A stretch of 41,740 nt of DNA from IMG/VR virus record IMGVR_UViG_3300005827_000046, positions 1 to 41,740 of that record; one strand, given 5' to 3'. Shown here one piece after another: positions 3,623 through 41,740 of the stretch; positions within the stretch are counted from its first letter, which is position 1, and each line of letters begins with the position of its first letter. Source of the DNA: a virus. Under the pieces are notes generated by a model, which made no database searches, was not told the origin of the DNA, and was given only the letters and a program-made list of their open reading frames with translations. Position numbers and translations under genes: made by a program.

Positions 3623-3633
3623 CTGAAACCCCC

Positions 3634-4620: not shown

Positions 4621-4623
4621 GCA

Positions 4624-7984: not shown

Positions 7985-8017
7985 TTTTATTACCTCCGTA
8001 CCTCAGAGCATACAAGA

Positions 8018-8050
8018 ACGCCCGCCACATAGCAAGTACGTGGCGGGCGT
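8018..8050 (-). terminator. 11-bp GC-rich stem-loop between the major tail gene and the chaperone gene (partial terminator or mRNA stabiliser)
   Basis: acgcccgccac (8018-8028) pairs with gtggcgggcgt (8040-8050). The minus-strand 3' flank is TCTTGTATG, only a weak U tract. Confidence 0.4.
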
Positions 8051-8078
8051 CCGGGAGGCATCCAACCAGTGAGACGAA

Positions 8079-12857: not shown

Positions 12858-12874
12858 GTTTCATTCCCCTTTCA

Positions 12875-13348
12875 TTAGAAATTGAGCGAAGGTGTGCGCG
12901 TATACACAACAACGGGCACTTTCACACCGGCAGCCCCGGCGACGCTTGCGACATTGGAAGGCAGGCGGATATAACCAACCGGGTGGGTCATAAGGCCAGC
13001 CGTATTGGTAATCGTCTGGGAATCCGCGCCAACGTATACTTCCTGAAAATTGACATAGGTTTCACCGGTGGTGGTGTTCAACTTGAACGCATCACCAAAA
13101 GCGGCTTCCATGTCGTAGTGGACGGGAGTCACGCCGTTGCCAAGATTCGAGGCAAACGGGATCGTCTTTGTCGCACAGCCGAGAAGCGTTGCGGCGTCGG
13201 CATCGCTGGTCACGGGCTTTGTGAGGTTATTCACAACGTCGTAAAACACAAGTGAACCCTGCTGGATCGGAAAATTGACTGGGTCAACCGCGAGGTCATA
13301 ATGAGCACCACCCCGCAATTTCTGGGACAGATTGTCTTTTGCTTCCAT
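12875..13348 (-). CDS. Small head protein between scaffold and capsid genes (possible decoration/cement protein)
   Basis: 157-aa ORF. RBS AAAGGGGA is nearly identical to the capsid gene RBS. The function is inferred from position only. Confidence 0.6.
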   Translation of the reverse strand: MEAKDNLSQKLRGGAHYDLAVDPVNFPIQQGSLVFYDVVNNLTKPVTSDADAATLLGCATKTIPFASNLGNGVTPVHYDMEAAFGDAFKLNTTTGETYVNFQEVYVGADSQTITNTAGLMTHPVGYIRLPSNVASVAGAAGVKVPVVVYTRTPSLNF

Positions 13349-13368
13349 GTTACTTTTCCCCTTTCCTA

Positions 13369-14706
13369 TTAGCCGGAAACACCGGCAAAGTGTTGCATAC
13401 CCTTAAGGCTTCCGCGTCCAGACTCGGACACGTTACCCGTTTTTGAACCACCATAGAACTGACCAAACGAAAGGGGCGCATCCTTCGTGATCGTCTTTTT
13501 GAACGTCTCACACACGGTCTTAACCTGCTTTACCGTCGTACACATTCCTAGGATTTCTTTCATTTCATCGGAGTGTGAAGATAGACCGGATTCGCGGACG
13601 ATCTTCTCGCGTTCACTTTCGAACACGATGCGTTTTTTGTCCGCTTTCAAAGCGGCATTTTCGGTTCTCAACTTCAACACGTAGTTGCGAACTGATTCGC
13701 CGACTTTGCCCTTTTTCATTTCGCGATCGACTGATTCTTCAGACTCCTCGGATTCTTCAGACTCTTCGGATTCGTCTGATTCTTCAGACTCCTCGGATTC
13801 TTCAGACTCTTCGGATTCGTCTGATTCCTCAGACTCCTCGGCTTCGTCCGCTTCCGAAGACTTTGCTTTACGTTCTTTCGGAGCTGGCTTTTTGTCCGCT
13901 GGTACTTCGTCGCCGTCTGGCTCTTCCTGACCGTCGCCCTTGTGGGTAATGGTCAACTGGCCTTCCTCCATTGCCTTGTCCATTTCGTCCATGAGTTTTA
14001 ACGCCTCCTCGGTTTTACCCGATTTCAGCGACTCATAGGCTTTTTTAAAAGCTTCCTTCATGATCTCCCCTTTCTTGGATATTGATGCGCCTCTTATGGA
14101 TTCCATAAGCGCGCGAAACCCTCCGCCCGCTCCGGGAACCGTAACAACGTCCGCCGAAGTCGGGAAAAGATCGGTTATATAGTTTATTGTTTCGCCGTCA
14201 GATCGAGCGACTTCTAACTTATTCAGGATGTCCGGGGCTTTCACTTCTTTTGCAACATCATTGATGGTGCGTTCTTTACCGTCACCACGGCCACGAACAG
14301 ATATGCCAATGATGTCTTTTTCTGGATACAGCGTCTTGAACTTTATAGCATTCTTTATTAAGTCCCAGTCCTTCTCATATGTAGCGCCTTCAAACACGTT
14401 GAGGATGCCGCGCATCTCCATAACGCCAGTCTTTTTATTCTCCTCACTTCGAACATTCGACCAGTACCCGATGATGTCGGCGACACTACGCTCGGGTCTA
14501 TCAACTTCCTCTGTCTCGGTGGCATGATCACGAAATACGCGTTCCCCTTCAAACCGGGGGGCGGATCGCGAAATGCACTCAGCCGAATAATAGTTGCGAT
14601 TTTTTAGATTTCCAAGGCCCTCGGATAGCATGGCGCAATCGGCGCTCCGCTTAGCGTCATCTGTGATCGCCGCTTCCCGTAGCGGTATGTGAAAAATGTT
14701 AGGCAT
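13369..14706 (-). CDS. Prohead protease / scaffolding fusion-type protein with an acidic SE-repeat tract
   Basis: 445 aa in the Mu gpI-like position upstream of the capsid gene. Globular N-terminal half, helical charged C-terminal half. Contains a (E/D)ESEES run of about 40 residues. Confidence 0.6.
   Translation of the reverse strand: MPNIFHIPLREAAITDDAKRSADCAMLSEGLGNLKNRNYYSAECISRSAPRFEGERVFRDHATETEEVDRPERSVADIIGYWSNVRSEENKKTGVMEMRGILNVFEGATYEKDWDLIKNAIKFKTLYPEKDIIGISVRGRGDGKERTINDVAKEVKAPDILNKLEVARSDGETINYITDLFPTSADVVTVPGAGGGFRALMESIRGASISKKGEIMKEAFKKAYESLKSGKTEEALKLMDEMDKAMEEGQLTITHKGDGQEEPDGDEVPADKKPAPKERKAKSSEADEAEESEESDESEESEESEESEESDESEESEESEESEESVDREMKKGKVGESVRNYVLKLRTENAALKADKKRIVFESEREKIVRESGLSSHSDEMKEILGMCTTVKQVKTVCETFKKTITKDAPLSFGQFYGGSKTGNVSESGRGSLKGMQHFAGVSG
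13733..13854. repeat. Perfect 2 x 45-bp tandem duplication plus a degenerate partial third copy
   Basis: gattcttcagactcctcggattcttcagactcttcggattcgtct occurs at 13733-13777 and again exactly at 13778-13822. 13823 onward matches for about 19 nt with 1 mismatch and then decays. It encodes the SE-rich tract of the scaffold. Confidence 0.95.
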
Positions 14707-14717
14707 TTAAACCCCCG

Positions 14718-15023
14718 TTATCTCTTTATTCTAACCCGAAAAATGATATCCGCAAGCCCTCCGCCTTGTGGAATCACTTGAGGATTAGCATCAATACTGT
14801 CTGGATTGATTCCCTCATTGACACAATAGCGCTCAAACTCCGTGACCGTCTTGAATCGATGCCCGCCGCACTCGATCATCCGACGTTGATGCTGAACTTC
14901 GCGGCTCTTCGCATTATCCATATACGAAAATCGGTCCTTTATGCGGACCATCTTGGCTTTCATGCGCGCAAAATACTTTTCCCGTGCGCTCTGTCTATCC
15001 ACTTCTGCAATCTCTATATTCAT
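14718..15023 (-). CDS. Hypothetical protein
   Basis: 101-aa ORF between the portal and scaffold genes, with GGGGGTGA RBS. Confidence 0.6.
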   Translation of the reverse strand: MNIEIAEVDRQSAREKYFARMKAKMVRIKDRFSYMDNAKSREVQHQRRMIECGGHRFKTVTEFERYCVNEGINPDSIDANPQVIPQGGGLADIIFRVRIKR

Positions 15024-15026
15024 TCT

Positions 15027-16748
15027 TCACCCCCGGTTTTCTGTCTTGATCGCTTTTTTGTCAGCGCCATCAAGCTGTTTTTTGTTATCGGTTGATGGTG
15101 CGGTCAGCGGATTGAATGTCCCAGCAAGGGACTGCTCCTTGTCCTTTTCATCCGCATCCCGCTCCGCTTTCACATCGTCATAGTTGTAATTGTTGACCTT
15201 CATTTCCTTCGCCGTCATCTCAGCGGCCATGCGTTTCGAGAAGTAGCCCGCCTGTTCTGACTTGATGGTGTCATCAATCTTTGCGCTTCGTTCGTCGATC
15301 TGGATTTCAGGCATGATCACACGGTGATCGGAAGTGATACCGGCAAAATCCTTCCACTCCTGAACGATAAAATCGGCAAGTTCTGAAAGAATGTTTTGAC
15401 GTTCTTCGAAAAACTTTCCAACGGGTTCAGCCGCCACAACAGCCGACGCGCGTGTATGACCGCCTGACTCTGTTGATATACCAAAATATTGCACGGGGAC
15501 ATTCAGACCAATAGCACACATCGAAAGAAGTTGATGCCACGTGGTGTCTGACCCCGTGTTGATTCCAGACGTTTGGAGCGGCTGAATCTCAATAGCCTTG
15601 TTATGGCATAGAGCACTGCCCGCTTGCGGCTCGGGTCCACTCATAATCTCTTGTGCATCTGCAACGTCACGATCATCACCATCAACCACCACATCCCAGA
15701 TAAAAGCGGCTTCGTTTTTTACCTTCACAACGCGGTAGGACATGTAGTCATTGATTCGTTTCAAGTACCCGAGAATGGCGAGAAGATCGGAGCGCCCGCG
15801 TTTTTCGTTTGATACGACGTTGACACGTATGTGCTTTACGTCTTGCGCTGGTACTTGTTCAAGGACGAATTCGCTCATGGGAATGCCGTCCTTGGTGAAC
15901 ATCTGATATTGAGTGGGGTACTGCAAATGGTAATAATAAATTTTCTCAATATCAACCGGATCGGTGACGACTTCCCAGCATGTAGACGGATCTATACAGC
16001 GGCGAATCGGACCAATGGTGGTCATTTGTTTTCGCAGCATGATCTCGCCGTATATGGACAACTCGCGCGCCATAGTACGAATGCGCTCATGAAACTTAGA
16101 AATTTTTTCGAACTTGTCCCAAAGGTCTTGGGCTTCATTGTCGCCATCAAAAACAATTTTGATCTTGCCGCCCAAAACGAAATTAACAATGGTGCTAACA
16201 GCGAATTTCGCAATAGGGTTGTGGTTTACTTCCCACCAAGCGCGGGCGTGCATTTCGAGATAGTTGTAGATGTACTGATTCTTTGAGAACGGGCCGCCCA
16301 TCAATTGGATGTAGTCTTGGCCAACTAGTAGCCCGTTCGATACACCAATACCGGGGCCGCTTCCCGTTTCGAACTCATTCGCTTCTCGTATTTTAAATTC
16401 CTGTTCGGCTTCTTTGACACTCGCGAGAAGCTCCTTCGTGCTCTGAATGCGTATGCGCTGGTATTCCACTTTGCCGTTTTCCGACTCGCGAACACGTAGC
16501 ACAATACCTTTCACGTTCACCGATCCGGGGTTGCTTTGTGTCTCGCGCAAAAACTTCGTCACGGGATCGATCTGGTCTTTCGTGTTTTCGATAACGAATG
16601 GAATACGGTCCGGGTCATACGCATCCGCGTGCGCGATCCCGAAGCCTTTACGTTTTCGCACTGGTTTTTCAGCTTCACGCGTAGCGACTACAGGCATGGG
16701 TTTCCGAACAACCGCTTTCCGTTTTACAGTCCTTGTTTTTTTAGCCAT
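15027..16748 (-). CDS. Portal protein with a basic ~130-aa N-terminal extension
   Basis: 573 aa, the largest head-module ORF besides TerL, adjacent to the MuF-like gene. The N-terminus is MAKKTRTVKRKAVVRKPMPVV...KPVRKRKG. Family not verified by search. Confidence 0.6.
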   Translation of the reverse strand: MAKKTRTVKRKAVVRKPMPVVATREAEKPVRKRKGFGIAHADAYDPDRIPFVIENTKDQIDPVTKFLRETQSNPGSVNVKGIVLRVRESENGKVEYQRIRIQSTKELLASVKEAEQEFKIREANEFETGSGPGIGVSNGLLVGQDYIQLMGGPFSKNQYIYNYLEMHARAWWEVNHNPIAKFAVSTIVNFVLGGKIKIVFDGDNEAQDLWDKFEKISKFHERIRTMARELSIYGEIMLRKQMTTIGPIRRCIDPSTCWEVVTDPVDIEKIYYYHLQYPTQYQMFTKDGIPMSEFVLEQVPAQDVKHIRVNVVSNEKRGRSDLLAILGYLKRINDYMSYRVVKVKNEAAFIWDVVVDGDDRDVADAQEIMSGPEPQAGSALCHNKAIEIQPLQTSGINTGSDTTWHQLLSMCAIGLNVPVQYFGISTESGGHTRASAVVAAEPVGKFFEERQNILSELADFIVQEWKDFAGITSDHRVIMPEIQIDERSAKIDDTIKSEQAGYFSKRMAAEMTAKEMKVNNYNYDDVKAERDADEKDKEQSLAGTFNPLTAPSTDNKKQLDGADKKAIKTENRG

Positions 16749-22310: not shown

Positions 22311-22351
22311 TTTTTATCAAAATGCACCCCTACCACTCTTGTTTACCAAAA

Positions 22352-22435
22352 GATGGGTCAGATGGGTCAGATGGGTCAGAGTATAAGGAATCATTATATT
22401 TTTTGCCTGACCCATCCCTGACCCATCTGACCCAT
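22352..22435. repeat. Inverted iteron array: 3 x GATGGGTCA, a 29-bp AT-rich spacer, then 3 x TGACCCAT
   Basis: ATGGGTCA at 22353, 22362 and 22371 (9-bp period). The spacer gagtataaggaatcattatattttttgcc is 22379-22407. TGACCCAT is at 22408, 22419 and 22428. The array starts 7 nt after the primase-helicase stop. Confidence 0.95.
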
Positions 22436-22441
22436 CTTTTA

Positions 22442-24700
22442 TTACACACTTTTTACCCAACGCTTTCCGAATTCCGTGTGGCACTTCTTAAAACCACACG
22501 CGCGAAGTGCCCTACCAAGTCTGAGTTGCGCTTTGTGGTCCATGCCGTCGGCAGTCCCGTGTAGCGGCCCATTAACGTCGCAGAGGTCTTTTGTTTTTAT
22601 GTACCCCTTATAGAAATCGGGGTTTTCAGCAATATGGGAAGTTATAGCCTCAATCCACGGATCCTCGGCGGTACGCAAGGATTGTTCCTCTGTAACGAGT
22701 CTGAGGATTTCAGGGTCATCTATGAAAGGCTTCTCCCCCTCCACCTCATAGCGAAACACCGCTTCAGCGATTAGCTGGTCTCTATCGCGCGAGAGCGCAT
22801 CACGATCGCAGTGCGACACCGTTACCGGCCAGAACCGTCTATTGCCCGTTTGGTCCTGAAGGTAGTCGTCTGGATTGGCTGTTCCAATGAACACAGTTCG
22901 CCTAGGTAGCTCTATAGTCTCCCGGCCATATGGCAACCGCACATTGTCCACTTGACGCGTTATAAACGCTTTTAGAGCGTTGATCTCCGTTTTACGCATG
23001 CCGGTCAGTTCACCAATCTCGTAAACCCACCGGCCCTGAATTCCGAGCACGGTATCCTTGTCACCGATGTTGAGATCGGCATCGCTGAACCAATCGCCGC
23101 CTAGTATTGAAACGGCGGTTGATTTTCCGCAACCCTGTTGTCCTTCAATAATGGTGACTGTATCGACTTTGCATCCGGGTGAAAGCCCGCGAGCGGCCAT
23201 TGCGATGATCGTCTTTGACCCAATAACTTGGAGTAGCTTGTCAGGCCCCTTGGCTCCTAGATAATCACGTAGCCAAGTGTTTAGACGCTCTTTGCCATCC
23301 CATCTGAGGCTGACAAGATAATCACGAAGCGGGTCTATGGCGTTCGCATTCGCAATGCTGCATACGGCATCATATATCTTGGCCTTGTCGGGCTCAAACC
23401 GCCACGTGTTAGCTAACCACATCATGATGATCACAGCATCCGAGTCGCCAAACTTGTCACCGAGTTTTGCGCCCCATGGAGCGTTACACCCATAGGTGAT
23501 GCGATTCATGAATATGTTTTTAACGAAGAGATTTTTCCCAACCGCGTTTGAAAGAACAAGGACAATATTGCGTACCGAACACTTGGGACGTGCGCCCGGG
23601 CCGGGACCACTTCGCTCGATGTCCTCACGCCACGATCGGAGGGTCTCTAAATCCTTCTCTTGCTCATTACGAAGCGCGGGGGTAAGAGCATCTAGGTCTT
23701 GTCCTAACACTGAGTCAAATTGCATCTCGGGGTCTGATGATTCGCGGGCCTTCGGCATGGTGTACTTTAAAAGCCAATCGATGACACTCTTTCGATTCGT
23801 GCGACCATGATCATACCCCACCATCCCAAGTGCATAGAAATCATCAGACAGCACGGATAAAATTTCATTCGTCTTATAGCCCGCGTGGTACATTTTGCAC
23901 GCGACGGAAAGAAGCGCCGCCGATCTATCAACTACACCCTCACCCGTCATGATCATCGTTTGCGTTGCAGTGTCTAGTTTGTCGAGGGACACCGTTTCCG
24001 GAATATCCGATCCCGGGTCTATTGTCGTCTTAACAGATGGCGCCTGTTCCAAGTCTTCAACTTTTTCAAACAGCGGGAAGTCTTCTGTAACGTGAGGTAG
24101 GAAACCCGCCCACTGATAGGGCTCATTACTATCGGGGTGTATAGATGGTGGTAGCACGATCTGACGACCCGCCGACATCGCAACAATCTCCCACGCCGAA
24201 CGCCAGCGATAACCGGCATCAATCTCCACCGCAGTCAGATACTTTCGATCATTCCCGGATGGTGGAGTACTCGGCATCATCACGCGCACTTTATCTGATG
24301 AGCACGCGAGCATGCGCCCCTTAAATTCTCTCCGGGTTCTGATGTAGATATGTCCCGAGCCGTTTCCCCGACCTGATAAAACGGCGGCACGTTCGGGCGA
24401 TGACATTGAACCGCCCCCCGGGATGATTTTATCAAGAGCCTCGTGCATTTCGTTGAGGTGTTTTTCGTCCTCACTCTTTACATCGCAGTCGAGAGCCGCG
24501 AGGAATGTTCCGTCTGGAAATTCAGACATGGCCCCAAGACGCACCCCGAGATTGTATCCCGGTTTATATGCAGCCACTAGCGTTTCGAGTTTTTGTTTTG
24601 AGCCCGTTGACCAACGCGCAGCAAGCGGCGCTTTGCTTTTAGGTTTCAACCAATGTAGGGAAAACCCAAGCTTATAGTACCATTCAAGGTGATTAAGCAT
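22442..24700 (-). CDS. Bifunctional primase-polymerase (PrimPol) / VirE-D5-type helicase
   Basis: 752 aa. N-terminal LGFSLHWLKPKSKAP, ALDCDVK (DxD) and SGRGNGSGHIYI resemble PrimPol motifs. Walker A is GQQGCGKST in the C-terminal half. GGAGGA RBS. Confidence 0.85.
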   Translation of the reverse strand: MLNHLEWYYKLGFSLHWLKPKSKAPLAARWSTGSKQKLETLVAAYKPGYNLGVRLGAMSEFPDGTFLAALDCDVKSEDEKHLNEMHEALDKIIPGGGSMSSPERAAVLSGRGNGSGHIYIRTRREFKGRMLACSSDKVRVMMPSTPPSGNDRKYLTAVEIDAGYRWRSAWEIVAMSAGRQIVLPPSIHPDSNEPYQWAGFLPHVTEDFPLFEKVEDLEQAPSVKTTIDPGSDIPETVSLDKLDTATQTMIMTGEGVVDRSAALLSVACKMYHAGYKTNEILSVLSDDFYALGMVGYDHGRTNRKSVIDWLLKYTMPKARESSDPEMQFDSVLGQDLDALTPALRNEQEKDLETLRSWREDIERSGPGPGARPKCSVRNIVLVLSNAVGKNLFVKNIFMNRITYGCNAPWGAKLGDKFGDSDAVIIMMWLANTWRFEPDKAKIYDAVCSIANANAIDPLRDYLVSLRWDGKERLNTWLRDYLGAKGPDKLLQVIGSKTIIAMAARGLSPGCKVDTVTIIEGQQGCGKSTAVSILGGDWFSDADLNIGDKDTVLGIQGRWVYEIGELTGMRKTEINALKAFITRQVDNVRLPYGRETIELPRRTVFIGTANPDDYLQDQTGNRRFWPVTVSHCDRDALSRDRDQLIAEAVFRYEVEGEKPFIDDPEILRLVTEEQSLRTAEDPWIEAITSHIAENPDFYKGYIKTKDLCDVNGPLHGTADGMDHKAQLRLGRALRACGFKKCHTEFGKRWVKSV

Positions 24701-26882: not shown

Positions 26883-27171
26883 AGCATACAAGATACGAGG
26901 ACCGGGAGAATATAAAACGCACAACGGCTGCAAGGTTCTCTTGAAACGGAAAATCCTTACCGCCCAAAAAGAAATCAGGTGGGAGGGTGTACTGCACCAA
27001 TACGGGCAACGGCCCCTTAACACGAATTGGGGGCCGAACGGCAACGTGTTTGATTCGGAGGAGAGCCCTTATGATATTGCCGGACGGTGGGGCGATAAAG
27101 ACGACATTGCGGATCGCATAGATACATTGGAGCGAAGAATCACAGAACTGGAAAGGGTGTTGATGACATGA
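26875..27171 (+). CDS. Hypothetical protein
   Basis: 98-aa ORF. Its initiation region is the same 20-nt gaggtgatcaaaaatgagta as the previous gene. Confidence 0.65.
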   Translation: MSRAYKIRGPGEYKTHNGCKVLLKRKILTAQKEIRWEGVLHQYGQRPLNTNWGPNGNVFDSEESPYDIAGRWGDKDDIADRIDTLERRITELERVLMT

Positions 27172-27539
27172 GCACAGAAATAAAAAAGTGTCCGTCATGC
27201 GGGTCAGAGGGAATATTTTTTAACCGCCCAGATCGTCACATGTATGTCGTGTGCTCAAACGACTACTGCACGATGAGCGGGCCGAGCGAAAGTAAAGAAA
27301 CCAGTGCGGATAAATGGAATGCCTTGCCAAGGCGCGAGGGCGCGCTCGTTACGGGAATGGACCCGCCTAAATGTGAAACACGCGAGTTAGCAAAAGAGTT
27401 GCGAAAGCGGTGTAAGTGGGGTGAGGAGGATGGATGCCCCAGCGAATGCGAAGTGCTTGACGTATGCGGAGAAGGAAGTATCCACTCGTGGTCATTCCCT
27501 TGTCCACACTGCAACGGAACGGGGAAAGAAAACCTATGA
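27168..27539 (+). CDS. Lar-like zinc-ribbon protein (restriction alleviation family), paralog 1, with an extra Cys-rich C-terminus
   Basis: KKCPSCGSEG...VVCSNDYCTMSGP...ADKWNALPRR fits the Lar pattern C-P-x-C-G ... C-x-x-x-C ... W-N-x-x-x-R. The C-terminus has CPSECEVLDVC and CPHCNGTG. Confidence 0.6.
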   Translation: MSTEIKKCPSCGSEGIFFNRPDRHMYVVCSNDYCTMSGPSESKETSADKWNALPRREGALVTGMDPPKCETRELAKELRKRCKWGEEDGCPSECEVLDVCGEGSIHSWSFPCPHCNGTGKENL

Positions 27540-27657: not shown

Positions 27658-27906
27658 ATGGGGTTTTTAGCAATTTTCATACCTCTATGCTTTGTGTTTT
27701 TCTTTTTGGTAATGAGCCGGTTTCACCTTGCGTTTCACCACATTGAAAACCTAAAGGGTAGGGTCAAATTACTCGAAGACGCCGCCAACCGCATACCCGT
27801 TGCCGCCGTCAAAGGGTTGGACGACACAGAGGCTTTTTTGGTTAGTAGTAGGGAACAACCTTTAGGGGTTGTCAGTATTAAAGACATAGGGAGGATACTG
27901 AAATGA
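27658..27906 (+). CDS. Small membrane protein (N-terminal TM, then a helical and a beta segment), paralog-like set member 1
   Basis: 82 aa. MGFLAIFIPLCFVFFFLVM is a TM helix. The C-terminus is PLGVVSIKDIGRILK. Confidence 0.6.
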   Translation: MGFLAIFIPLCFVFFFLVMSRFHLAFHHIENLKGRVKLLEDAANRIPVAAVKGLDDTEAFLVSSREQPLGVVSIKDIGRILK

Positions 27907-28250
27907 GCATTGAACTAAAACCCTGCCCGGCATGTGGTGGGGTTCCAAAACGGTATGATAGATTCATATTTTGTTTTTCAAAAGGCTGTCATGTGTCTGG
28001 TCCATACGATGACCAAGACGGTTCAAAGTGGAACGCCCTTCCAAGACGCGATGACGTACATGAAACCCTAGAGGATAAAGTCATTCGCGAGGCGCATCAG
28101 AAATATTTAAAGAACAACAAGATCACCAAGCGCGACCTTTTTGCGGCGGCTGTTTTGGTCGGTGTTAACCTAAACCAGTTTGGCTTTGATACCACAGCCG
28201 AACAGTGTTTTGCGGCTGCCGACAAAATGATTGAGGAGAGTTTGAAATGA
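27903..28250 (+). CDS. Lar-like zinc-ribbon protein, paralog 2
   Basis: MSIELKPCPACGG...CFSKGCHVSGP...DGSKWNALPRRDDV. Confidence 0.65.
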   Translation: MSIELKPCPACGGVPKRYDRFIFCFSKGCHVSGPYDDQDGSKWNALPRRDDVHETLEDKVIREAHQKYLKNNKITKRDLFAAAVLVGVNLNQFGFDTTAEQCFAAADKMIEESLK

Positions 28251-28567
28251 ACATCGAATTAAAACCCTGCCCAGCGTGTGGGAATGATGGACTACTTTTT
28301 GGGCAACGTGATTGGTGTACCTATGCTGTATGTACCAATGACAAATGCTGTGTGCATGGGCCGTTATACGACACCGACGGCTCAAAATGGAACGCGTTGC
28401 CAAGACGCGATGACGTGAAAAACCAACCGGATGAGGGGGCTTTGCTAAACCACATCACCACCGCTTACTTCCTATTAGGCCCTGTACTACGTAACAACCA
28501 CTCGCCTGAGAGCATGGTCGAGGTCTATAAGCACCTACGCGAAAAGATAAAGGCGGTGATGACATGA
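28247..28567 (+). CDS. Lar-like zinc-ribbon protein, paralog 3
   Basis: MNIELKPCPACGN...CTNDKCCVHGP...DGSKWNALPRRDDV. Similarity to paralog 2 is visible at the DNA level. Confidence 0.65.
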   Translation: MNIELKPCPACGNDGLLFGQRDWCTYAVCTNDKCCVHGPLYDTDGSKWNALPRRDDVKNQPDEGALLNHITTAYFLLGPVLRNNHSPESMVEVYKHLREKIKAVMT

Positions 28568-29772: not shown

Positions 29773-30116
29773 CTAAAACCATTCACGGATTAATTAAAAG
29801 ACTGAAACGAACACCGATAACGATACATCAGTATTACCCGGGATTTATTGAGGGAGAGGTGATTGAACAGGCCACAGTGTACACCAAAAAGGAATTTAGG
29901 GCGATTCCGTTCATAAAACGACGGCTGGATAATAAAGATTGTTGCTTGAGGATTAGCCCCGACCAAGGACAGCCCGCTCTTATGGCTGTATACTCTGACT
30001 CATACTGGGTGATCGCTTTTATCTATGGAGATTGGAGACGATTAAAGTTACCGAAATGGAATCCTCGATTCCCATACAGAGATGAGACGAAGCCAAAAGA
30101 GGAGAGACATTCATGA
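29769..30116 (+). CDS. Hypothetical protein
   Basis: 115-aa ORF with ATGA overlaps on both sides. Confidence 0.6.
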   Translation: MTKTIHGLIKRLKRTPITIHQYYPGFIEGEVIEQATVYTKKEFRAIPFIKRRLDNKDCCLRISPDQGQPALMAVYSDSYWVIAFIYGDWRRLKLPKWNPRFPYRDETKPKEERHS

Positions 30117-30547
30117 AGTACCTAAGATATTTTTTATACGTTCTGAGTCATAAATACCACGTGGCCCGGTACTGCTTTAAACTCGGACTTTATCGAGAGG
30201 CATTCACTCACGACCTATCAAAATTTTGGCCGGATGAGTTTATTCCCCACGCACGTTATTGGTACCACCCGGAGGGCATGGACGCACCGAAGGGGAAAAT
30301 CAATCGTAGGGTGGATTTCATGAAGGCGAAGACTCTTCACTTCTCACGCAACCCGCACCACCTATGCCCAGCCCCGTTTTTGGACCGCCGTCACATACTT
30401 GAAGCATGTGCGAACTGGTTGGCTATGGGGTATGTTCGGAATGAAAAAGCATCAAACTATTATATTCAAAACATCCGGTCAGTTCTAAAATTGCCCCCGT
30501 TTGATAACGACGCGGTGCTGAGAATTTTACGAAAATATGAGGTTTAG
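30113..30547 (+). CDS. DUF5662-like protein
   Basis: 144 aa. YVLSHKYHVARYCFKLG...HDLSKFWPDEFIPHARYW matches my recollection of the HDLSK-x-x-P-x-EF signature of this phage-associated family. Not verified by search. Confidence 0.5.
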   Translation: MKYLRYFLYVLSHKYHVARYCFKLGLYREAFTHDLSKFWPDEFIPHARYWYHPEGMDAPKGKINRRVDFMKAKTLHFSRNPHHLCPAPFLDRRHILEACANWLAMGYVRNEKASNYYIQNIRSVLKLPPFDNDAVLRILRKYEV

Positions 30548-36148: not shown

Positions 36149-36409
36149 ATGAGTGTTTGCATGAATTGCTTTGAAGCTACCCCGAACGATGGACACACCG
36201 GCGAATTTAAATTGTGCGAAAAATGCGAAGCCGAAGCCCGTGAAGTCTATGACCGTGTTGCGAACAAAATCACCCCGATCATGCTAGATATGAACCCTTC
36301 GCACCATGTGATGCATCGAGTTATTGAAATGCTCCGAAACACCTTGAAAGACGACCGGGGGCGGATACGCTATCCCGTAACACCGCCCCCGGACTTAAAT
36401 CAACGTTGA
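36149..36409 (+). CDS. Small zinc-ribbon protein
   Basis: 86 aa with CMNC ... CEKC. Last gene of the rightward arm. Confidence 0.6.
   Translation: MSVCMNCFEATPNDGHTGEFKLCEKCEAEAREVYDRVANKITPIMLDMNPSHHVMHRVIEMLRNTLKDDRGRIRYPVTPPPDLNQR
36355..36392. other. 10-bp perfect GC stem (ccgggggcgg / ccgcccccgg) with an 18-nt loop at the convergence point
   Basis: 36355-36364 is the exact reverse complement of 36383-36392. It lies inside the last rightward gene, just past the end of the leftward arm. The minus-strand 3' flank TCGTCTTTC is only a weak U tract. Confidence 0.45.
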
Positions 36410-37194
36410 CCCTGACCGCCGCTTGAACCCACAAGCGGCTTTTCTTTTTTCACACTCTTGATCAACCAGAACATGCAATATACGCCGTCCTGTTCGCAGT
36501 ACGATGCGGGGAAAGACTGATAGCCGCCGATGCCACAATCCGCCCCCCAAGAATTCTTGACGATAAAATAAACGTCCGCCCCCTGCTTCTTATAACCCAT
36601 GACTTCAAGAGCATGGCCACTGTTTGGAACGGGCGGCGACGTGGGGGACACAACAGCTTTGCAATTCACCATGTCATTCGGTGTGCTCATCGCAACATAG
36701 GCGGGTTTTTTAGCGGCGAGATGAGCTACAATCTCGTTTACCGTGAACACCTGAACGGAGTTTGCTAGTTTATATAGCGGCGATTGTTTCCACGTCGGAA
36801 GCGGAGCCGTTGCGGATTGTGGCCAGAATGTACTTTCGATCAAGCCCCGGCCTTTTGTTGCGACGCTGACAGCGGTGGACGCCTGATACACTTGATACTG
36901 ATTCCAGAAATCACGCGCCGATAATTCCGTCCCGTCGCAAAGTAAGTTCTCAATTGCACCGATCAACCCGAACGTTGTACACGTCCCGCCGAATTGCTGC
37001 TTCACTTCGGTGTCACAGGATACAAGAGACACCGAGGCGGGTGTCTTTTGCGCCCGAGACGCGTGTACTTCCCGGCGATGTTTGTCGATCTCGATACGTT
37101 GGTCAACAGATATCAGAGAATCAAGAGGCACCGTTACTGGAAACCCTTGCGCGAGAACTGGAAACAGGAGCATAAACAGTATTCGTTTTTTCAT
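36400..37194 (-). CDS. Exported papain-family (C1) cysteine protease
   Basis: Signal peptide MKKRILFMLLFPVLAQG. Gln-x5-Cys in KQQFGGTCTTFG (compare papain Q19...C25), His in SGHALEVMGY, Asn in IVKNSWGADCGIGGY. All are in the papain order. Confidence 0.8.
   Translation of the reverse strand: MKKRILFMLLFPVLAQGFPVTVPLDSLISVDQRIEIDKHRREVHASRAQKTPASVSLVSCDTEVKQQFGGTCTTFGLIGAIENLLCDGTELSARDFWNQYQVYQASTAVSVATKGRGLIESTFWPQSATAPLPTWKQSPLYKLANSVQVFTVNEIVAHLAAKKPAYVAMSTPNDMVNCKAVVSPTSPPVPNSGHALEVMGYKKQGADVYFIVKNSWGADCGIGGYQSFPASYCEQDGVYCMFWLIKSVKKEKPLVGSSGGQGQR
36418..36450 (+). terminator. Intrinsic terminator of the rightward arm, embedded in the 3' coding end of the convergent protease gene
   Basis: GCCGCTTG-aaccca-CAAGCGGC followed by TTTTCTTTTTT, 9 nt after the stop at 36409. 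Confidence 0.75.
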
Positions 37195-37496
37195 ATGTTC
37201 ACCTGATTATTGTGGTTGGCATGAACCGCAGCATCGTAGTCTTGGCGGGCGATCCGCTCCGCCTCTTCGACTAGTTTGCCCCGAGCGATGAGGTACGCAA
37301 GCCCCACGATCAAAAGAAGCGCGGCCTTTATCGACCCCCATAGCCCCTCTTTGCTCGACGCGAGAACAGCCGCAAACCAGTCATCGAGCATGGTGATCGA
37401 CACGTTATTAGTACGGTGAGCCTTCCAGTCAAAGGAAAACGTTGATGGTGCGCTGGTTGGCGTTGTAGTTGTGTTTACAGGTGTTCCGGGACTCAT
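37191..37496 (-). CDS. Small membrane protein (single hydrophobic helix in the C-terminal half)
   Basis: ATG at 37496 overlaps the upstream TGA (ATGA). Thr/Pro-rich N-terminus, then WGSIKAALLLIVGLAYLIARG. The stop overlaps the protease ATG. Confidence 0.6.
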   Translation of the reverse strand: MSPGTPVNTTTTPTSAPSTFSFDWKAHRTNNVSITMLDDWFAAVLASSKEGLWGSIKAALLLIVGLAYLIARGKLVEEAERIARQDYDAAVHANHNNQVNI

Positions 37497-38134
37497 TGCG
37501 AAGCCCCCCACCAATAAGCGAAGCGGCCCGATTCGCCCATGACAATTGCCGCGGTAGCTGGGGTTTCAAGCGCGGTTTCGTCTTTCAGATACTTCCCTTT
37601 TGGTTCCCAGATGGTGGAGTAATGCGCACTCTCTCCGAGATATAAATACTTCCCCGACCGGATCGGCTTTTGCATCGGTATGTATTTTGAGTCGGTTATG
37701 ATCACGCGACCCGTCGCAAAACTTCCGACATTGGTTGCGGCGTCAATCGGGGCGATGTCAAAGGTGAAGTTAAAAACCGATTCCCCCGCGTAGTCCGTGG
37801 GCTTTATTGTAATCGAAAATGCTTTACCCGCCGGGACAACATATGTTTTATTTAGAGATGCCGGGAGATTCGCAGAGACTTGAAAATCCACATTGTACGC
37901 GAATTGCTGTTCTATCGAAGATATGACAACGCTTTGATCGTTCGTCACTCGGAACGAACAGAACCCAATTTCGCCACCGGAATCACGGCACGTTTTGCCG
38001 TTCACATACACCAAAAACTCGGGGGAGTTTGCGAGAACGGGGGGCAAAACTCCAAGGTCCGATTTATACGGGATGGCCTGACATGCAACAAATATCGCAA
38101 TCAAGGCCGCCACGATTAAAAATGTCTTTTTCAT
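37493..38134 (-). CDS. Lipoprotein of unknown function
   Basis: ATG at 38134 with GGAGGGGG 7 nt upstream; the track's 70-codon N-terminal extension crosses the terminator region and is rejected. MKKTFLIVAALIAIFVAC has a lipobox-like FVAC. The mature part is beta-rich. Confidence 0.65.
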   Translation of the reverse strand: MKKTFLIVAALIAIFVACQAIPYKSDLGVLPPVLANSPEFLVYVNGKTCRDSGGEIGFCSFRVTNDQSVVISSIEQQFAYNVDFQVSANLPASLNKTYVVPAGKAFSITIKPTDYAGESVFNFTFDIAPIDAATNVGSFATGRVIITDSKYIPMQKPIRSGKYLYLGESAHYSTIWEPKGKYLKDETALETPATAAIVMGESGRFAYWWGASQ

Positions 38135-38300
38135 TTTTGACCCCCTCCAATTGGGTCTGATGTTTTGAGACGTAGGGCAATCCCGCCCACGCCTTGAGCC
38201 AAAAAGAACAACCGCACGGTGTCTGATAGGTGTGGCCACGATAGACCCACACCGGTACAGACGACATGAAACCAGAACGTTTTTGACTGCCAAAGTGTTT

Positions 38301-38342
38301 TCATAAATAAAAAGGGCCGTCCGACTCTTCGCCGGACGGCCC
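38301..38342 (-). terminator. Intrinsic terminator after the 83-aa gene
   Basis: Minus strand reads GGGCCGTCCG-gcgaagagt-CGGACGGCCC followed by TTTTTATTTAT. Confidence 0.8.
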
Positions 38343-38369: not shown

Positions 38370-38621
38370 TTAGCCGATCAAAGCGTCAACCATTTCACCG
38401 GTGTGATAACCAATTGTCTGGATAAACACCTTGCGATTCGCTTTCGCTTCGTTCGGGATATCCTGACAATTGTCGATAGCGGAAACCACAAGCGGCAACT
38501 CGGTAGCCATGATCTCGGCCAAGGGCTTTTTCTGGCGAATGCTGGCGGCGAGGTTATTAACCGCGATCATCACATCCCCGATTTCTTTTGCATAGTCGAT
38601 TTCTTTTTTCTGAATGCCCAT
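38370..38621 (-). CDS. Hypothetical soluble protein
   Basis: 83-aa ORF with GGGAGGA RBS and no hydrophobic helix. Confidence 0.6.
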   Translation of the reverse strand: MGIQKKEIDYAKEIGDVMIAVNNLAASIRQKKPLAEIMATELPLVVSAIDNCQDIPNEAKANRKVFIQTIGYHTGEMVDALIG

Positions 38622-38725
38622 AACTTAAATCCTCCCTTATCAATTTTTGTTCCGACCCATACAGCCGTTAACCACACCACGCAGATAATGGCTATGACAT
38701 CGTAATACTCAAAATCGTACACGAT

Positions 38726-39097
38726 CTAAAACCAGTCCGCAACTTGAATGTGGATATGCGCGGAAGGGCCTTGCCCGTCGTAATTCCCGCCGTCATTCAC
38801 TTTTGCAGTCTCAAGTTTCGGACGGGCTGGGTCGTAACAGTATTTCGAATTGAGGTAGTCAACTAATTCGATGGCCTCACCCGGCTTTAAGACCCCCGTG
38901 ACGCGTAGGTCAGCCGCCCGCTTGGCAGCATGGATGCCGGAATCTCCGGATTGTGGCCGGATGATCGACGTCCATGTGGCCTCGGTTCCCTTTCGGTGCA
39001 TGTAGCACTCCACATCGAACATTATCATAGCGAGACGTGGGTGGACCTCAAAAACCATATCAGGCGTTGAGTGCGTTTCGGCCCCTAAAAACTTCAT
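38726..39097 (-). CDS. Zinc peptidase M15-type endolysin (Peptidase_M15A-like)
   Basis: 123 aa. SGIHAAKRAADL gives the H-x6-D spacing of the S-x-H-x-x-G-x-A-x-D motif. The C-terminal SAHIHIQV resembles the H-x-D/H metal ligand motif. Confidence 0.6.
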   Translation of the reverse strand: MKFLGAETHSTPDMVFEVHPRLAMIMFDVECYMHRKGTEATWTSIIRPQSGDSGIHAAKRAADLRVTGVLKPGEAIELVDYLNSKYCYDPARPKLETAKVNDGGNYDGQGPSAHIHIQVADWF

Positions 39098-39513
39098 ACT
39101 ATGTACCCCCTTCCGTAATTGTGCATAGTGATGCCCGGTCCGGGACCGGGAAAATTTATAAACGCAAGTCCTGTTGTGGCCGTCAATTCCGCCGGTGCGA
39201 TAAAATCCCTTGTGAGCCGTGGCGCGAGGTGACGCGCAAAAATCACTTGGCCGCTTAGGTCGAAATACATTGAACCGGGATAGGGTCTACCCGATGCGAA
39301 TTCATACACAAGTTGAGTGTTTGCACCTCGCGCCGTCTCGGCATCTATTGATGCGTTTTGTGATGTATTGGTATTCGTAAGGGACACATTCGCTGCCACA
39401 TGTGCCCCGCAGTCAAGCCCCAGACGACGCAAAAGGTCGTATCCGGTAGGCATTCGAAACCGTGTTTCATTGTCATATATATTCTCATAGGTGTTTTCGG
39501 GAAGCAAAGACAT
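39094..39513 (-). CDS. Hypothetical protein (tail-distal block)
   Basis: 139-aa ORF with AAGGGGG RBS. The stop overlaps the endolysin ATG. Confidence 0.6.
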   Translation of the reverse strand: MSLLPENTYENIYDNETRFRMPTGYDLLRRLGLDCGAHVAANVSLTNTNTSQNASIDAETARGANTQLVYEFASGRPYPGSMYFDLSGQVIFARHLAPRLTRDFIAPAELTATTGLAFINFPGPGPGITMHNYGRGYIV

Positions 39514-39523
39514 GAGTACCCCC

Positions 39524-40000
39524 TTACACGTTCACCGCTTGCCACGTATCGACATAGATATTGCTCGCATCTACTGGGCATTGAAAGGCGAAGACAGCCG
39601 GAGCGGCGGAAAAGTCGCACGCGAACGATCTCACATTGGTGCTATTAGTGAACGTCGGTATGATCGACTGAACGAAAAAAGGCACCAAGTCGATGTTGTT
39701 CGAGTATGTTCCGAGAAAAATATGGACCGCCGATCCGGGAATGAAGTTTTGCGCTCCACCATACACGACCATGTTGAGCGTGTAATCCTGAACCCTTGCG
39801 CCATGAAGCATTACGCCCCGCGCGTTCCATGCAGATATTCGCCCAAGTAAGGCCGTGTCTTGCGCGAATAGGTAGGCCGCTCTGTCCCGAAAGAAGTTGA
39901 GGGCCGCGCCAATCTTCTGCATGACGTACTCAGATAGGGGGCGTTTGGCCTCGACGTCCTTTGAATCCATTCGCACGTAAGTGCTTGGTACGTTGCTCAT
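39524..40000 (-). CDS. Hypothetical protein (tail-distal block)
   Basis: 158-aa ORF with ATGA overlap to the upstream gene. Confidence 0.6.
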   Translation of the reverse strand: MSNVPSTYVRMDSKDVEAKRPLSEYVMQKIGAALNFFRDRAAYLFAQDTALLGRISAWNARGVMLHGARVQDYTLNMVVYGGAQNFIPGSAVHIFLGTYSNNIDLVPFFVQSIIPTFTNSTNVRSFACDFSAAPAVFAFQCPVDASNIYVDTWQAVNV

Positions 40001-40452
40001 ACGATATCAGCCCTCCATACTCGAACGCCCTGACCGGGCAGAAGCCCCAAAAAGAAGCATCTAGGAGAGCCGAGGGGGATATTTTCCTCAATGACTTTTC
40101 TGGTACCAAAGGACGCTGCGAAATCAGAACCGTGTGGACACATCATAACAATAGCAGTCCAAGTGGTACTTGTTCCGTCATACTCCATGAACCACAAAGG
40201 GGCCTCCCCTCCGGGGTTTCCCGAGTAGTCCAAGTCCTTCACGTGGGTCAGTTTTATATTGGCGTTTCGGCTAACAATCGAATTCACGCCCGATTGAATG
40301 GTGGTATCGTTCGCGGGCAACACATTGGTGAACTGGTCGTGTAGGTACGTATGATCTGCTCCGAGTTTCCCAATAAGGTCTTCAGTCGGCGCGGCCTGTA
40401 CTCTTGTTTCCTCGATCGTAACGGGTGAATTGGCTCCTGCTATTATTCCCAT
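39997..40452 (-). CDS. Hypothetical protein (tail-distal block)
   Basis: 151-aa ORF starting 5 nt after the J-like gene stop. Confidence 0.6.
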   Translation of the reverse strand: MGIIAGANSPVTIEETRVQAAPTEDLIGKLGADHTYLHDQFTNVLPANDTTIQSGVNSIVSRNANIKLTHVKDLDYSGNPGGEAPLWFMEYDGTSTTWTAIVMMCPHGSDFAASFGTRKVIEENIPLGSPRCFFLGLLPGQGVRVWRADIV

Positions 40453-40456
40453 GATT

Positions 40457-41740
40457 TTAAATTATCCTGTAAGGCGCACCGTTGTCAATAAAGCCTATTA
40501 GCTCCACGAGATCACCCGGGGAAGGCGTGAACCCTAGAGCGTTTTGAACCGTAGCAACTCCCGCCGTGTAGTCTGTGATTATTGTCTCGGGGGACTGGTA
40601 TGACCAGTTAGGCGCTCTGACAATCACATATGCCCCCTTGCGAAGGTTGGGCGCTGTGAATACTGTTTGAGATGTCCCGGAGGTCACAACTTCGGTCGGG
40701 TCGATATGACAGTAGGCATTTTTTGACAGCGTTCCCGCATCGTCATACATTGGCGTTTCGATGAGATCACCTATAAGAGCGGTATGCGTGCGATCAAGAT
40801 AGAACTTGTTTTGATTCCCCTCATCTTGTCGGACGATGACGGCGATCATGTCCCGAGAATAGTCGATGCTGTGTAGTCGAATTGTTTCACCAATAAAAGG
40901 CGTCCATTTTTTCCACTCACTGTCGCCATATTTCGCGCCGAAAGACGGAGTGACTTCGATCCAATCTGCGCCAACGCGGACAAGATACGAAGACGGGGCA
41001 ATTACCGCGTATCGATCAGATACCTCAAAACCCGCTTTAGACAGCACTTTCATTTGGACTTTTCCGTCACCAATCCCGACGGACCTCTCCAAAATTTCAA
41101 CGGGTCTATTGGCGATTCGTCTTGTTCCGTTGTCGGTGTTTGGTATCTTCAGCGAGCCTTTGTCATTCAAAATAACTATGTCCCCGACTTCATGCAGGTG
41201 ACCACGACCCCACGAAGTGGAAAGCGTTATCTCCTCACACCCAAACCGATAGCGCATAAGGAAGCGAAACGCTCGATTAGCTACGAGAGTACCGCCCCCC
41301 AAGTGTGTTCTGAATCCACGCGATTGAATAGGCAAAACCTTGGTGATACCAATCCGAGTTATGGACTCAGAGTCTACTTGACGATACGAATTTTTGAAGT
41401 TTCCACCCTGTTCGTCGTATTCATAAAAAATCTCCGAGAAAAAACGCCGCGTGTCTGTTCCGCGCTTTACTGATATTGATGCGGGTTCAATGATCGCATC
41501 GTCATCGATCACATCAATAGTATCTGTTGCAAGCGGGGGGTGAGTAAGCCCCATACTGATACGCCCATCACGGGTCATGGAATACGCGCAGATTGGTAAT
41601 AGCAGTTCCTTCTCGATGAACCCCTTACCACTCGATTCAGTTTCGGACAATATAAACCCCATGATCTGAGAACCCAAAAAGGAATCGCGCCAATATTCGT
41701 ATCGCGGAACGTCTACATCCTCGGGTGACAAACGAAGTCC
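40457..41740 (-). CDS. C-terminal 427 codons of the same J-like tail tip protein
   Basis: ORF track 40457..41731. The apparent start at 41731 is a TTG that is internal to the junction-spanning frame. The stop is at 40457-40459. Confidence 0.8.
   Translation of the reverse strand, partial: GLRLSPEDVDVPRYEYWRDSFLGSQIMGFILSETESSGKGFIEKELLLPICAYSMTRDGRISMGLTHPPLATDTIDVIDDDAIIEPASISVKRGTDTRRFFSEIFYEYDEQGGNFKNSYRQVDSESITRIGITKVLPIQSRGFRTHLGGGTLVANRAFRFLMRYRFGCEEITLSTSWGRGHLHEVGDIVILNDKGSLKIPNTDNGTRRIANRPVEILERSVGIGDGKVQMKVLSKAGFEVSDRYAVIAPSSYLVRVGADWIEVTPSFGAKYGDSEWKKWTPFIGETIRLHSIDYSRDMIAVIVRQDEGNQNKFYLDRTHTALIGDLIETPMYDDAGTLSKNAYCHIDPTEVVTSGTSQTVFTAPNLRKGAYVIVRAPNWSYQSPETIITDYTAGVATVQNALGFTPSPGDLVELIGFIDNGAPYRII
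41621..41740. repeat. Right copy of exact 120-bp terminal direct repeat
   Basis: Identical to bases 1-120. Confidence 0.95.

Follow-up and report, generated by a model that had tools for sequence, protein, structure and literature searches.

Why should a phage carry, at the end of its structural arm, a small operon that sends a papain-type protease, a lipoprotein and a membrane protein to the cell envelope? The question is raised by positions 36,400 to 38,342 of the virus record IMGVR_UViG_3300005827_000046, which was analysed over its whole length of 41,740 nucleotides (the window). Exported papain-type proteases recur in many unrelated uncultured phages, in none of them with a known role. 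Our preferred reading, to which we give a probability of around 0.4, is that the cassette is an accessory and horizontally mobile module that would proteolyse the envelope of the infected cell, with the lipoprotein and the membrane protein as a partner pair. It is drawn from the moron-like placement of the protease family, from two associations with surface-polysaccharide genes and from the coexistence of the protease with muralytic enzymes. The features of the cassette are the following (aa, amino acids; nt, nucleotides).

38304 to 38342, minus strand: intrinsic terminator at the end of the late (structural) arm, with its stem at 38342-38314 and a T tract
38135 to 38300, minus strand: untranslated leader of 166 nt, with the Shine-Dalgarno sequence GGAGGGGG at 38148-38141
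37493 to 38134, minus strand: gene 1, lipoprotein precursor of 213 aa with lipobox FVAC (Gln at +2), lipid Cys18 encoded at 38083-38081 and a conserved Cys49/Cys59 pair
37191 to 37496, minus strand: gene 2, 101-aa bitopic membrane protein (by hydropathy), ATGA-coupled on both sides
36400 to 37194, minus strand: gene 3, 264-aa pre-pro short C1A cysteine peptidase (PF00112, AlphaFold2, Foldseek)
37194 to 37144, minus strand: Sec signal of gene 3, residues 1-17, ending in VLAQG before FP (MKKRILFMLLFPVLAQG followed by FP)
37143 to 37033, minus strand: N-terminal extension of gene 3, residues 18-54
37032 to 36445, minus strand: catalytic domain of gene 3, residues 55-250
36979 to 36996, minus strand: codons from Q67 (36996-36994, oxyanion-hole Gln) to C72 (36981-36979, catalytic Cys)
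36553 to 36615, minus strand: codons from H194 (36615-36613, catalytic His) to N214 (36555-36553, Asn of NSWG), followed by S215-W216-G217 with the Trp of NSWG

The terminator, with a stem of 12 base pairs (10 of them G-C), a 5-nt loop and the tail TTTTTATTT, was the most stable terminator-like site of the whole genome in a hairpin-energy scan (38342-38314, -26.6 kcal/mol), supporting that the cassette behind it is insulated. Gene 1 starts at ATG 38134, with GGAGGGGG ahead of it. A 283-aa open reading frame (ORF) with a GTG start that spans the leader (38344-37493) was dismissed as spurious, since it begins inside the terminator, while ATG 38134 has a strong Shine-Dalgarno sequence. The 226-nt stretch formed by leader and terminator folds with z = -3.6, the low energy being largely due to the terminator, and a structured RNA or riboswitch in the 166-nt leader was rejected on finding no Rfam family. 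Direct reading of the sequence showed ATGA stop/start overlaps between genes 1 and 2 (37496-37493) and between genes 2 and 3 (37194-37191), with the Shine-Dalgarno motifs GGTGGGGGG and AGGTGA ahead of genes 2 and 3, respectively.

Export signals were judged by Kyte-Doolittle hydropathy and regular-expression heuristics, which found the lipoprotein signal MKKTFLIVAALIAIFVAC with Gln at +2 in gene 1, a central helix in gene 2 and a Sec signal in gene 3. The predictions show an outer-membrane-type lipoprotein in gene 1 and a single-helix membrane protein in gene 2, and the three envelope-targeted products come from one translationally coupled operon. An earlier note, made from the letters of this DNA, had proposed the strong terminator followed by a 166-nt untranslated stretch, the two overlaps coupling three genes and the envelope targeting of all three products, and each of these points was borne out.

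The exported papain-type protease

The product of gene 3 matched Pfam PF00112 with 41.3 bits (gathering cut-off 20.7; E 2.4e-10) and Peptidase_C39_2 with 25.5 bits (cut-off 24), and a phmmer search of PDB sequences returned 141 C1 chains at E <= 1, including procerain B, cathepsins H, B, S and K, and xylellain. In the HMMER alignments with procerain B, cathepsin H and xylellain, residues C72, H194, N214 and W216 align on Cys25, His159, Asn175 and Trp177 of papain. Among 51 subfamily members, whose alignment was too diverse for pattern design, Q67, H194, N214 and W216 are invariant and C72 is conserved in more than 90%. An AlphaFold2 model (24 relatives) reached a predicted local distance difference test (pLDDT) of 91.9 and a predicted template modelling (TM) score of 0.88. 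Foldseek gave 273 matches to this model in the PDB at E <= 1e-3, the top ones all C1A (E 4e-12 to 3e-10, probability 1.0, target-normalised TM up to 0.76), with pro-Der p 1, procathepsins H and K, cathepsin S, procerain B, xylellain (3OIS) and Lpg2622 (6A0N) at the head.

The agreement of the Pfam, PDB-sequence and structure searches, together with the invariance of the catalytic residues, supports the identity of the effector. By profile, catalytic residues and two-lobed papain fold, the gene 3 product is an intact, predicted-exported peptidase of family C1, subfamily C1A, of the short xylellain type. The earlier note had read a full papain signature of clan CA family C1 in it, which the profile match, the four aligned residues and the Foldseek probability all sustain. 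The spacing given there, Q-x5-C, is literally present from Q66 to C72, yet the Gln that is invariant in the subfamily is Q67, i.e., Q-x4-C, so that the Gln-Cys loop would be one residue shorter than that of papain.

No I29 prodomain, a segment of about 100 aa with the ERFNIN and GNFD motifs, was found with Pfam, only 37 residues lying between the signal peptide and the catalytic domain, and the enzyme is therefore not of the classical cathepsin L/V-cath type. The extension (residues 18-54), modelled with high confidence over residues 21-40, has a helix at 30-42 and an (L/V)IP..F motif common to homologues, and it may be a mini-propeptide. Pfam revealed no muralytic or wall-binding domain in the protease. 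Conserved Cys pairs are present in both the protease and the lipoprotein and, together with the hydrophobic N-termini and lipoboxes of the family, support an action outside the cytoplasm.

Distribution of the protease and of its partner genes

As for the protease family, a HMMER scan of 1.84 billion cluster representatives found 375 relatives at E <= 1e-3, 174 of them at E <= 1e-10. A hydrophobic N-terminus was seen in 131 of 163 full-length members and a lipobox in 37, none with Asp at +2. The nearest genomes are those of Halobacteriovorax and metagenome-assembled genomes of Bdellovibrionales, an unclassified deltaproteobacterium and Polynucleobacter. In bacteria, the copies have other secreted papain-fold proteins, of the Gln_deamidase_2 family, as neighbours. 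At two loci whose nearest genome is Halobacteriovorax (L001 7757-9980; L005 4956-5801 and 10204-11043), the homologues are flanked by secreted Gln_deamidase_2 (PF18626), YkuD-like and PLD-like proteins, in what looks like a secreted-effector island of predatory bacteria.

The phage copies were found in at least 10 metagenomic contexts, one of them a 39.8-kb podovirus-like contig, and these have no other detectable gene in common with the window phage, except for a TerL match to L009. The homologue in P0006 is of the mostly single-gene type, on the opposite strand to its neighbours or between modules, and in L009 and P0012 the protease is a lone opposite-strand gene. In the group of L004, L010 and L118 a phosphoribosyl-pyrophosphate synthetase gene lies upstream. 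Muralytic enzymes accompany it in two phages, an SLT enzyme in L002 and, two genes ahead of the protease, an Amidase_2 endolysin in L123, which argues that the protease is not generally the endolysin. Surface-polysaccharide genes stand beside a homologue twice, these being the Wzy_C membrane protein (O-antigen ligase/polymerase family) that precedes the protease in the 44.7-kb phage L007 (6854-7987) and a TylF/methyltransferase cluster in L203. These data show that the protease moves among unrelated phages, and its accessory character is supported by the fact that homologues are mostly single, opposite-strand or inter-module genes.

The earlier note had taken classical C1 proteases to be typical of eukaryotes and of baculovirus V-cath and to be no standard lysis or virion component of tailed phages, and this view is not supported. 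The enzyme is of a short bacterial type, and short xylellain-type C1A peptidases have been horizontally acquired by Myoviridae and Siphoviridae (Caudoviricetes) (PMC10380794). The bacterial class is widespread and functionally almost uncharacterised, functional data being limited to two species (PMC10380794). PHROG 16701, labelled "peptidase", matches the window protease (E 1.4e-4) and that of L012 (E 1.4e-9). BFVD holds several "Peptidase_C1 domain" proteins of uncultured Caudovirales that match the predicted structure, and its entry A0A6J5TCZ4 matches the window model with E 2.7e-13. By tblastn, 50,697 GenBank phage records contained no relative of the subfamily, which is thus known in phages from metagenomes only. 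An initial genome scan with the pattern KNSWGADC had given no confirmed relative.

Some further observations were made at these loci. TnpB-type genes (OrfB_IS605/Cas12f1-like_TNB) occur in two protease-carrying phage contigs (L002 18738-19862, L004 9422-10609). Pfam DUF5662 is found in the window (30113-30547) and in L004 (2317-2760), in the latter beside the phosphoribosyl-pyrophosphate synthetase and the protease; L010 and L118 have the same gene order as L004 and similar N-terminal sequences, and the DUF5662 copies are mutually undetectable by phmmer at 1e-4.

The partner genes are far rarer. The mature lipoprotein has 195 aa, and gene 1 is the sole ORF with a lipobox in the six frames of the genome. 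Only the query itself came back when 5.8 billion proteins were searched, and no Pfam, PHROG, NCBIfam or PADLOC family was found. Its single-sequence AlphaFold2 model is poor (pLDDT 47), and the predicted beta core in it (residues 60-146) gave only generic Ig/FnIII matches in Foldseek (best E 0.012). Gene 2 encodes a Pro/Thr-rich N-terminal part of 50 aa, a helix at about residues 51-75 (37346-37272) and a charged C-terminal tail of 26 aa, with no family in Pfam, PHROGs, NCBIfam or PADLOC. The PADLOC defence and exclusion models gave no match below E 0.04 with the three proteins and their L012 counterparts, and an identity as a known anti-phage defence or exclusion system was discarded.

The sole homologue of the lipoprotein is encoded in the contig IMGVR_UViG_3300033153_012630 (L012, also L203) at 7380-8057, 530 nt from a member of the same protease subfamily (tblastn 2e-11, phmmer 4.6e-13, 28% identity). 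The two lipoproteins conserve the lipid Cys, I-x-YK-x-DL, LA-x-SP, NG-x-CR and the Cys pair. The contig has 29% G+C and carries a Mu/P2-like myovirus tail module with Baseplate_J, GpP and a lectin-domain fibre, and no other gene shared with the window phage was detected. In gene order, a 65-aa XhlA-like protein (phrog_1193 "hemolysin", E 2.3e-4) is followed by a multi-helix protein of 92 aa, then by the protease, a membrane protein of 92 aa, the lipoprotein homologue and a central-helix protein of 94 aa. The protease is itself a lipoprotein here (LMGC). The 94-aa protein bears a weak similarity to the window 101-aa protein (pairwise E 0.039), and its gene (8044-8328) has 14 nt in common with that of the lipoprotein, which it overlaps. 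The same contig has at 12448-16321 a convergent cluster with a TylF methyltransferase and a Methyltransf_23 protein, and glycosyltransferase-like ORFs that were seen by eye only and are without family match.

The recurrence of the lipoprotein beside the same protease subfamily in one unrelated phage is a new lead. That L012 repeats the lipoprotein together with an overlapping central-helix gene near the protease supports the partner pair, and that it keeps the pair overlapped and the protease separated suggests that the lipoprotein and the membrane protein are more closely tied to one another than to the protease, which lies near them. No further lipoprotein homologues were found by hidden Markov model among 194 fetched loci, by a pattern scan of IMG/VR, which returned only L012 itself, or by tblastn in GenBank phages, and the relatives of a 287-aa protein of L012 have no cassette genes. 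The trio had been put forward as a unit in the earlier note; this gains some support from L012, where lipoprotein, protease and overlapping membrane gene recur, but the trio is not supported as a general unit, the protease having no such partners in about 10 other phage contexts. The lipoprotein/membrane partnership and the three-gene operon, seen in two occurrences, have not been described previously.

Possible roles of the cassette

On the reading that we prefer, the protease would be exported by Sec in a zymogen-like form and would mature by losing its short extension, after which it could cut proteins in the periplasm or on the surface of the infected cell, for instance receptors, adhesins, tethers or surface layers. 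The lipoprotein and the membrane protein would form an inner-to-outer-membrane pair that positions, restrains or regulates this proteolysis. Most likely, the gain would be a remodelling of the surface during infection that excludes further phage and leaves fewer progeny trapped on debris, and that may also aid release. The genes could be expressed at a low level by transcripts that pass the strong terminator ahead of them, or else from a promoter in the 166-nt leader that escaped recognition. If envelope editing of this kind (receptor removal, tether cutting or surface-layer degradation) is true, it would amount to a proteolytic route to superinfection exclusion or lysis and would offer a way into a large family of uncharacterised proteases. 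The pair provides a concrete hypothesis of regulation or anchoring, and the small, clonable three-gene cassette, with clear catalytic-dead controls, has practical value.

Several points weigh against this reading. The position at the end of the tail module, beside small membrane proteins, fits a role in lysis equally well. Within the late arm, the capsid gene and a tail gene likewise end in strong terminators, so the terminator alone is no proof that the cassette is transcribed independently, and no sigma-70-like promoter was found on the same strand in the leader. The lipoprotein/membrane pair lies beside the protease in only 2 of about 25 close loci, which indicates that the protease clearly works without it elsewhere, and the sensitive search for the lipoprotein was confined to loci chosen for carrying the protease, an ascertainment bias. 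Seen as a possible moron, the cassette has an upstream terminator and a downstream hairpin, with no promoter found in the leader; a search for promoter-like repeats common to the intergenic regions gave none that was convincing.

In another explanation, which we regard as rather doubtful, the cassette is a lysis module that adds to the lysis genes of the phage. In it the lipoprotein and the membrane protein would be a spanin-like pair, and the protease would cut either the peptide stems of peptidoglycan, as an endolysin does, or the protein tethers that join the outer membrane to the wall. It is favoured by the lack of any endolysin, holin or spanin recognisable with Pfam or PHROG in the complete 41.6-kb genome, by the status of the 213-aa lipoprotein as the only lipobox ORF, and by the presence of spanins in about 87% of the phages of Gram-negative hosts (PMC6139136). 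The cassette also comes after the tail module and a small single-helix ORF, one of three upstream of the terminator.

38726 to 39097, minus strand: 123-aa ORF upstream of the terminator
38570 to 38722, minus strand: 50-aa single-helix ORF with a basic tail (by hydropathy), start GTG 38722, ending in TGATG
38370 to 38621, minus strand: 83-aa ORF whose internal ATG (Met18) is overlapped by the TGATG of the 50-aa ORF

These three ORFs (38370-39097) have no match in Pfam, PHROGs, PDB or GenBank phages, and they may be an unrecognised holin and endolysin. An M15-type endolysin in the 123-aa ORF was considered and set aside, since its H-x6-D ... H-x-H arrangement was noticed only by eye and neither Pfam, PHROG, PDB nor the phages gave a match. 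In L012, the protease directly follows the XhlA-like and 92-aa multi-helix proteins, the usual endolysin slot. Furthermore, mycobacteriophage LysA endolysins contain papain/C39-like domains (N5 domain, PMC3314691), and some papain-fold phage proteins in BFVD are labelled "peptidoglycan binding" or "muramidase". The pair, though, shares with spanins little more than its lipoprotein signal (FVAC with Gln at +2, by heuristics). The helix of gene 2 is central (about 51-75 of 101), where an i-spanin has an N-terminal one followed by a long, mostly helical periplasmic domain; at most about 28 residues of the protein would face the periplasm, with no coiled coil. The order is reversed, with the lipoprotein first, and the two proteins add up to 314 aa, about 250 aa being the usual upper limit for spanins (criteria of PMC6139136). 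As all structural features but the lipobox differ, we do not take the pair for a spanin. To our knowledge, no C1A enzyme cuts peptidoglycan. The protease coexists with the SLT and Amidase_2 enzymes mentioned above, most of its homologues are in early or inter-module positions, and a strong terminator stands between the late genes and the cassette.

Staphopain/staphostatin, SpeB/Spi and Bacteroides Bfp/Bfi are the models for another explanation, in which the protease comes with its cognate guard. The lipoprotein, possibly with the membrane protein, would be an inhibitor or immunity factor that shields the envelope of the producer, and the targets of the protease would lie outside the cell, in prey, competitors or a eukaryotic host, so that the cassette would benefit the phage-carrying bacterium. 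We hold this to be improbable. The arrangement is that of an inhibitor gene, adjacent and coupled to the protease gene with export signals on both products; the tight ATGA coupling implies co-expression, and lipoprotein and protease recur within 530 nt in the unrelated phage L012. Clan CA proteases co-transcribed with adjacent lipoprotein inhibitors are known, one on an excisable prophage (PMC2873492), as is a phage-derived pair of secreted protease and lipoprotein that alters the wall (PMC8235301). The beta-rich core predicted for the lipoprotein and the nearest cellular homologues of the protease, secreted proteins of predatory Bdellovibrionota beside other secreted papain-fold enzymes, point the same way. 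Against it, no chagasin (I42), staphostatin or other inhibitor family in Pfam or NCBIfam matched the lipoprotein or its L012 homologue, and such identities were rejected, the NPTTG, GxGG and RPW motifs being absent; the earlier note had likewise seen no chagasin-type NPTTG. The mature lipoprotein has 195 aa as compared with 110-140 aa in known inhibitors, and its model is too poor for its Ig/FnIII matches to help. Most protease homologues are without such a neighbour, and as no integrase or repressor was recognisable in the complete genome, lysogenic conversion is doubtful.

It is very unlikely, in our estimation, that the three genes are independent accessories which merely share an operon, the recurrence in L012 reflecting a hot-spot for envelope-related cargo. 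The protease is usually alone, the order differs (lipoprotein-membrane-protease in the window, protease-X-lipoprotein-membrane in L012), and the L012 protease is not the closest relative of the window protease (30% identity against 41% for others). On the other hand, the lipoprotein family is so rare that 5.8 billion proteins gave only the query, a homologue was still found within about 1.5 Mb of DNA selected solely for the protease, and the start/stop overlaps argue for co-translation. A bolder reading, also unlikely, would make the cassette an undescribed protease-based system for breaching or editing the envelope, in which a trans-periplasmic scaffold of lipoprotein and membrane protein holds and releases the protease, replacing the spanin/endolysin step or destroying the receptor of the phage, in a genome where endolysin, holin and spanin are all unrecognisable.

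Surrounding genome and related systems

Bases 1-120 of the window are identical to 41621-41740, a 120-nt exact direct repeat at the contig ends. Unique bases number 41,620 in this complete phage genome, which is either circularly closed or terminally redundant. The minus-strand arm runs through primase/VapE, terminase, portal, capsid and tail genes and wraps round the contig end, with the cassette last. It converges with a plus-strand replication arm (SNF2 helicase, DUF2800, Enc34-type single-stranded-DNA-binding protein, DNA polymerase A), the two overlapping by 10 nt (36400-36409), and the terminator-like hairpin of each arm sits within the last coding region of the other.

36417 to 36440, plus strand: terminator of the early/replication arm, inside the codons of the C-terminal tail of the protease and outside the operon
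36341 to 36406, minus strand: terminator-like hairpin past the protease stop, CCGGGGGCGG ... CCGCCCCCGG, with an 18-nt loop and a weak T tract (inverted repeat I18)

The minus-strand hairpin lies inside the 3' end of the convergent plus-strand gene 36149-36409 and, with its 18-nt loop, was missed by the terminator scan, whose loop limit was 8 nt.

Most proteins of the tail end (1523-7349 and 39094-41731) are without a family match. Between 13706 and 13864, within the minus-strand ORF 13369-14706, 12 registered copies of a tandem repeat with a period of 9 nt encode an acidic Ser/Glu/Asp repeat; the 445-aa product, encoded between the portal and capsid genes and without a Pfam match, is possibly a scaffold. 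Tandem AGATGGGTCAG units make up a perfect inverted repeat of 20 nt (22360-22379, 22418-22437) where the primase/VapE gene has its 3' end (22340-22448); it could be a terminator, an operator or a packaging or origin element. Three paralogous small plus-strand genes (27168-27539, 27903-28250, 28247-28567) have repeated 5' ends, and the first matches Pfam Lar_restr_allev (restriction alleviation).

Queries with the DNA polymerase and the 123-aa protein returned no relatives of the window phage in IMG/VR, and the capsid protein had no match among GenBank phages. The DNA polymerase is about 36% identical to those of phages of Janthinobacterium, Stenotrophomonas and Achromobacter, in which the arm-junction loci were uninformative. 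In the uncultured phage MW202898.1 (DNA polymerase identity 36%; L202), a gene after the replication genes (13134-13775) is annotated as "bone morphogenetic protein 1" (astacin-like metalloprotease) and may be another phage-borne exported protease. The G+C content of 50% and the Bdellovibrionota relatives of the protease point to a host in Bdellovibrionota, which is only a lead.

Among known systems, Llp of T5 and Cor of phi80/T1-like phages, receptor-masking exclusion lipoproteins, serve as a lead only. They are phage lipoproteins encoded beside tail-fibre or receptor-binding genes and act at the outer membrane of the infected cell; they differ from the lipoprotein of the cassette in their size of about 60-80 aa, in having no sequence similarity to it and in having no protease. 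Two-component spanins such as lambda Rz/Rz1 (PMC6139136) resemble the pair in the overlap between an outer-membrane lipoprotein gene and a bitopic membrane protein gene near the end of the late genes, with one protein per membrane and the lipoprotein the only one in the genome, whereas the lipoprotein of the cassette is large and predicted to be beta-rich and has no spanin match in PHROG or Pfam. The N5 domain of LysA (PMC3314691) is likewise a papain-superfamily peptidase domain that phages use on the cell wall; LysA, however, is cytoplasmic and modular, with wall-binding domains and defined lysis cassettes, and the window protease is a stand-alone, predicted-exported C1A enzyme.

Closer to the guard explanation, the C10 proteases Bfp of Bacteroides fragilis and their Bfi partners (PMC2873492) share with the cassette the clan CA fold, lipoprotein and Sec signals, small co-transcribed lipoprotein partners and a location on mobile elements including an excisable prophage. 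They differ in belonging to family C10 and not C1, and in inhibitors that are staphostatin-like and 116-138 aa long, the lipoprotein of the cassette having 213 aa, no detectable similarity to Bfi and an additional membrane protein. In Listeria, too, a phage-derived locus has adjacent genes for an exported protease, the metzincin Mtz, and a TIMP-like lipoprotein, Tim, which jointly alter the wall and enhance phage-mediated lysis and virion release (PMC8235301); there, the enzyme is a metalloprotease, the host is Gram-positive, a CI/Cro switch is present and no sequence relationship to the cassette exists.

For the protease itself, baculovirus V-cath is another case of a C1A protease encoded by a virus, with a late action on host structures. 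It derives from lepidopteran cathepsin F and has a full prodomain (PMC10380794), and the origin of the window protease from bacterial short C1A enzymes makes it an acquisition independent of V-cath. Xylellain of Xylella fastidiosa (3OIS) and Lpg2622 of Legionella (6A0N) share with it the single-domain papain fold with Gln, Cys, His and Asn, the absence of an I29 prodomain and the short N-terminal extension (sequence E 4e-6, structure E about 2e-10, probability 1.0). The differences are an identity of about 18-19%, the Q-x4-C spacing of the window subfamily, its nearly constant export and frequent lipidation, and its phage-borne state here. The Caudoviricetes C1A peptidases (PMC10380794), PHROG 16701 and the BFVD proteins are the same kind of gene in the same kind of virus; none of them has a described function or partner genes. 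The protease thus belongs to a documented kind, the phage-borne short C1A peptidases, and the new part is the operon and the partnership that it carries.

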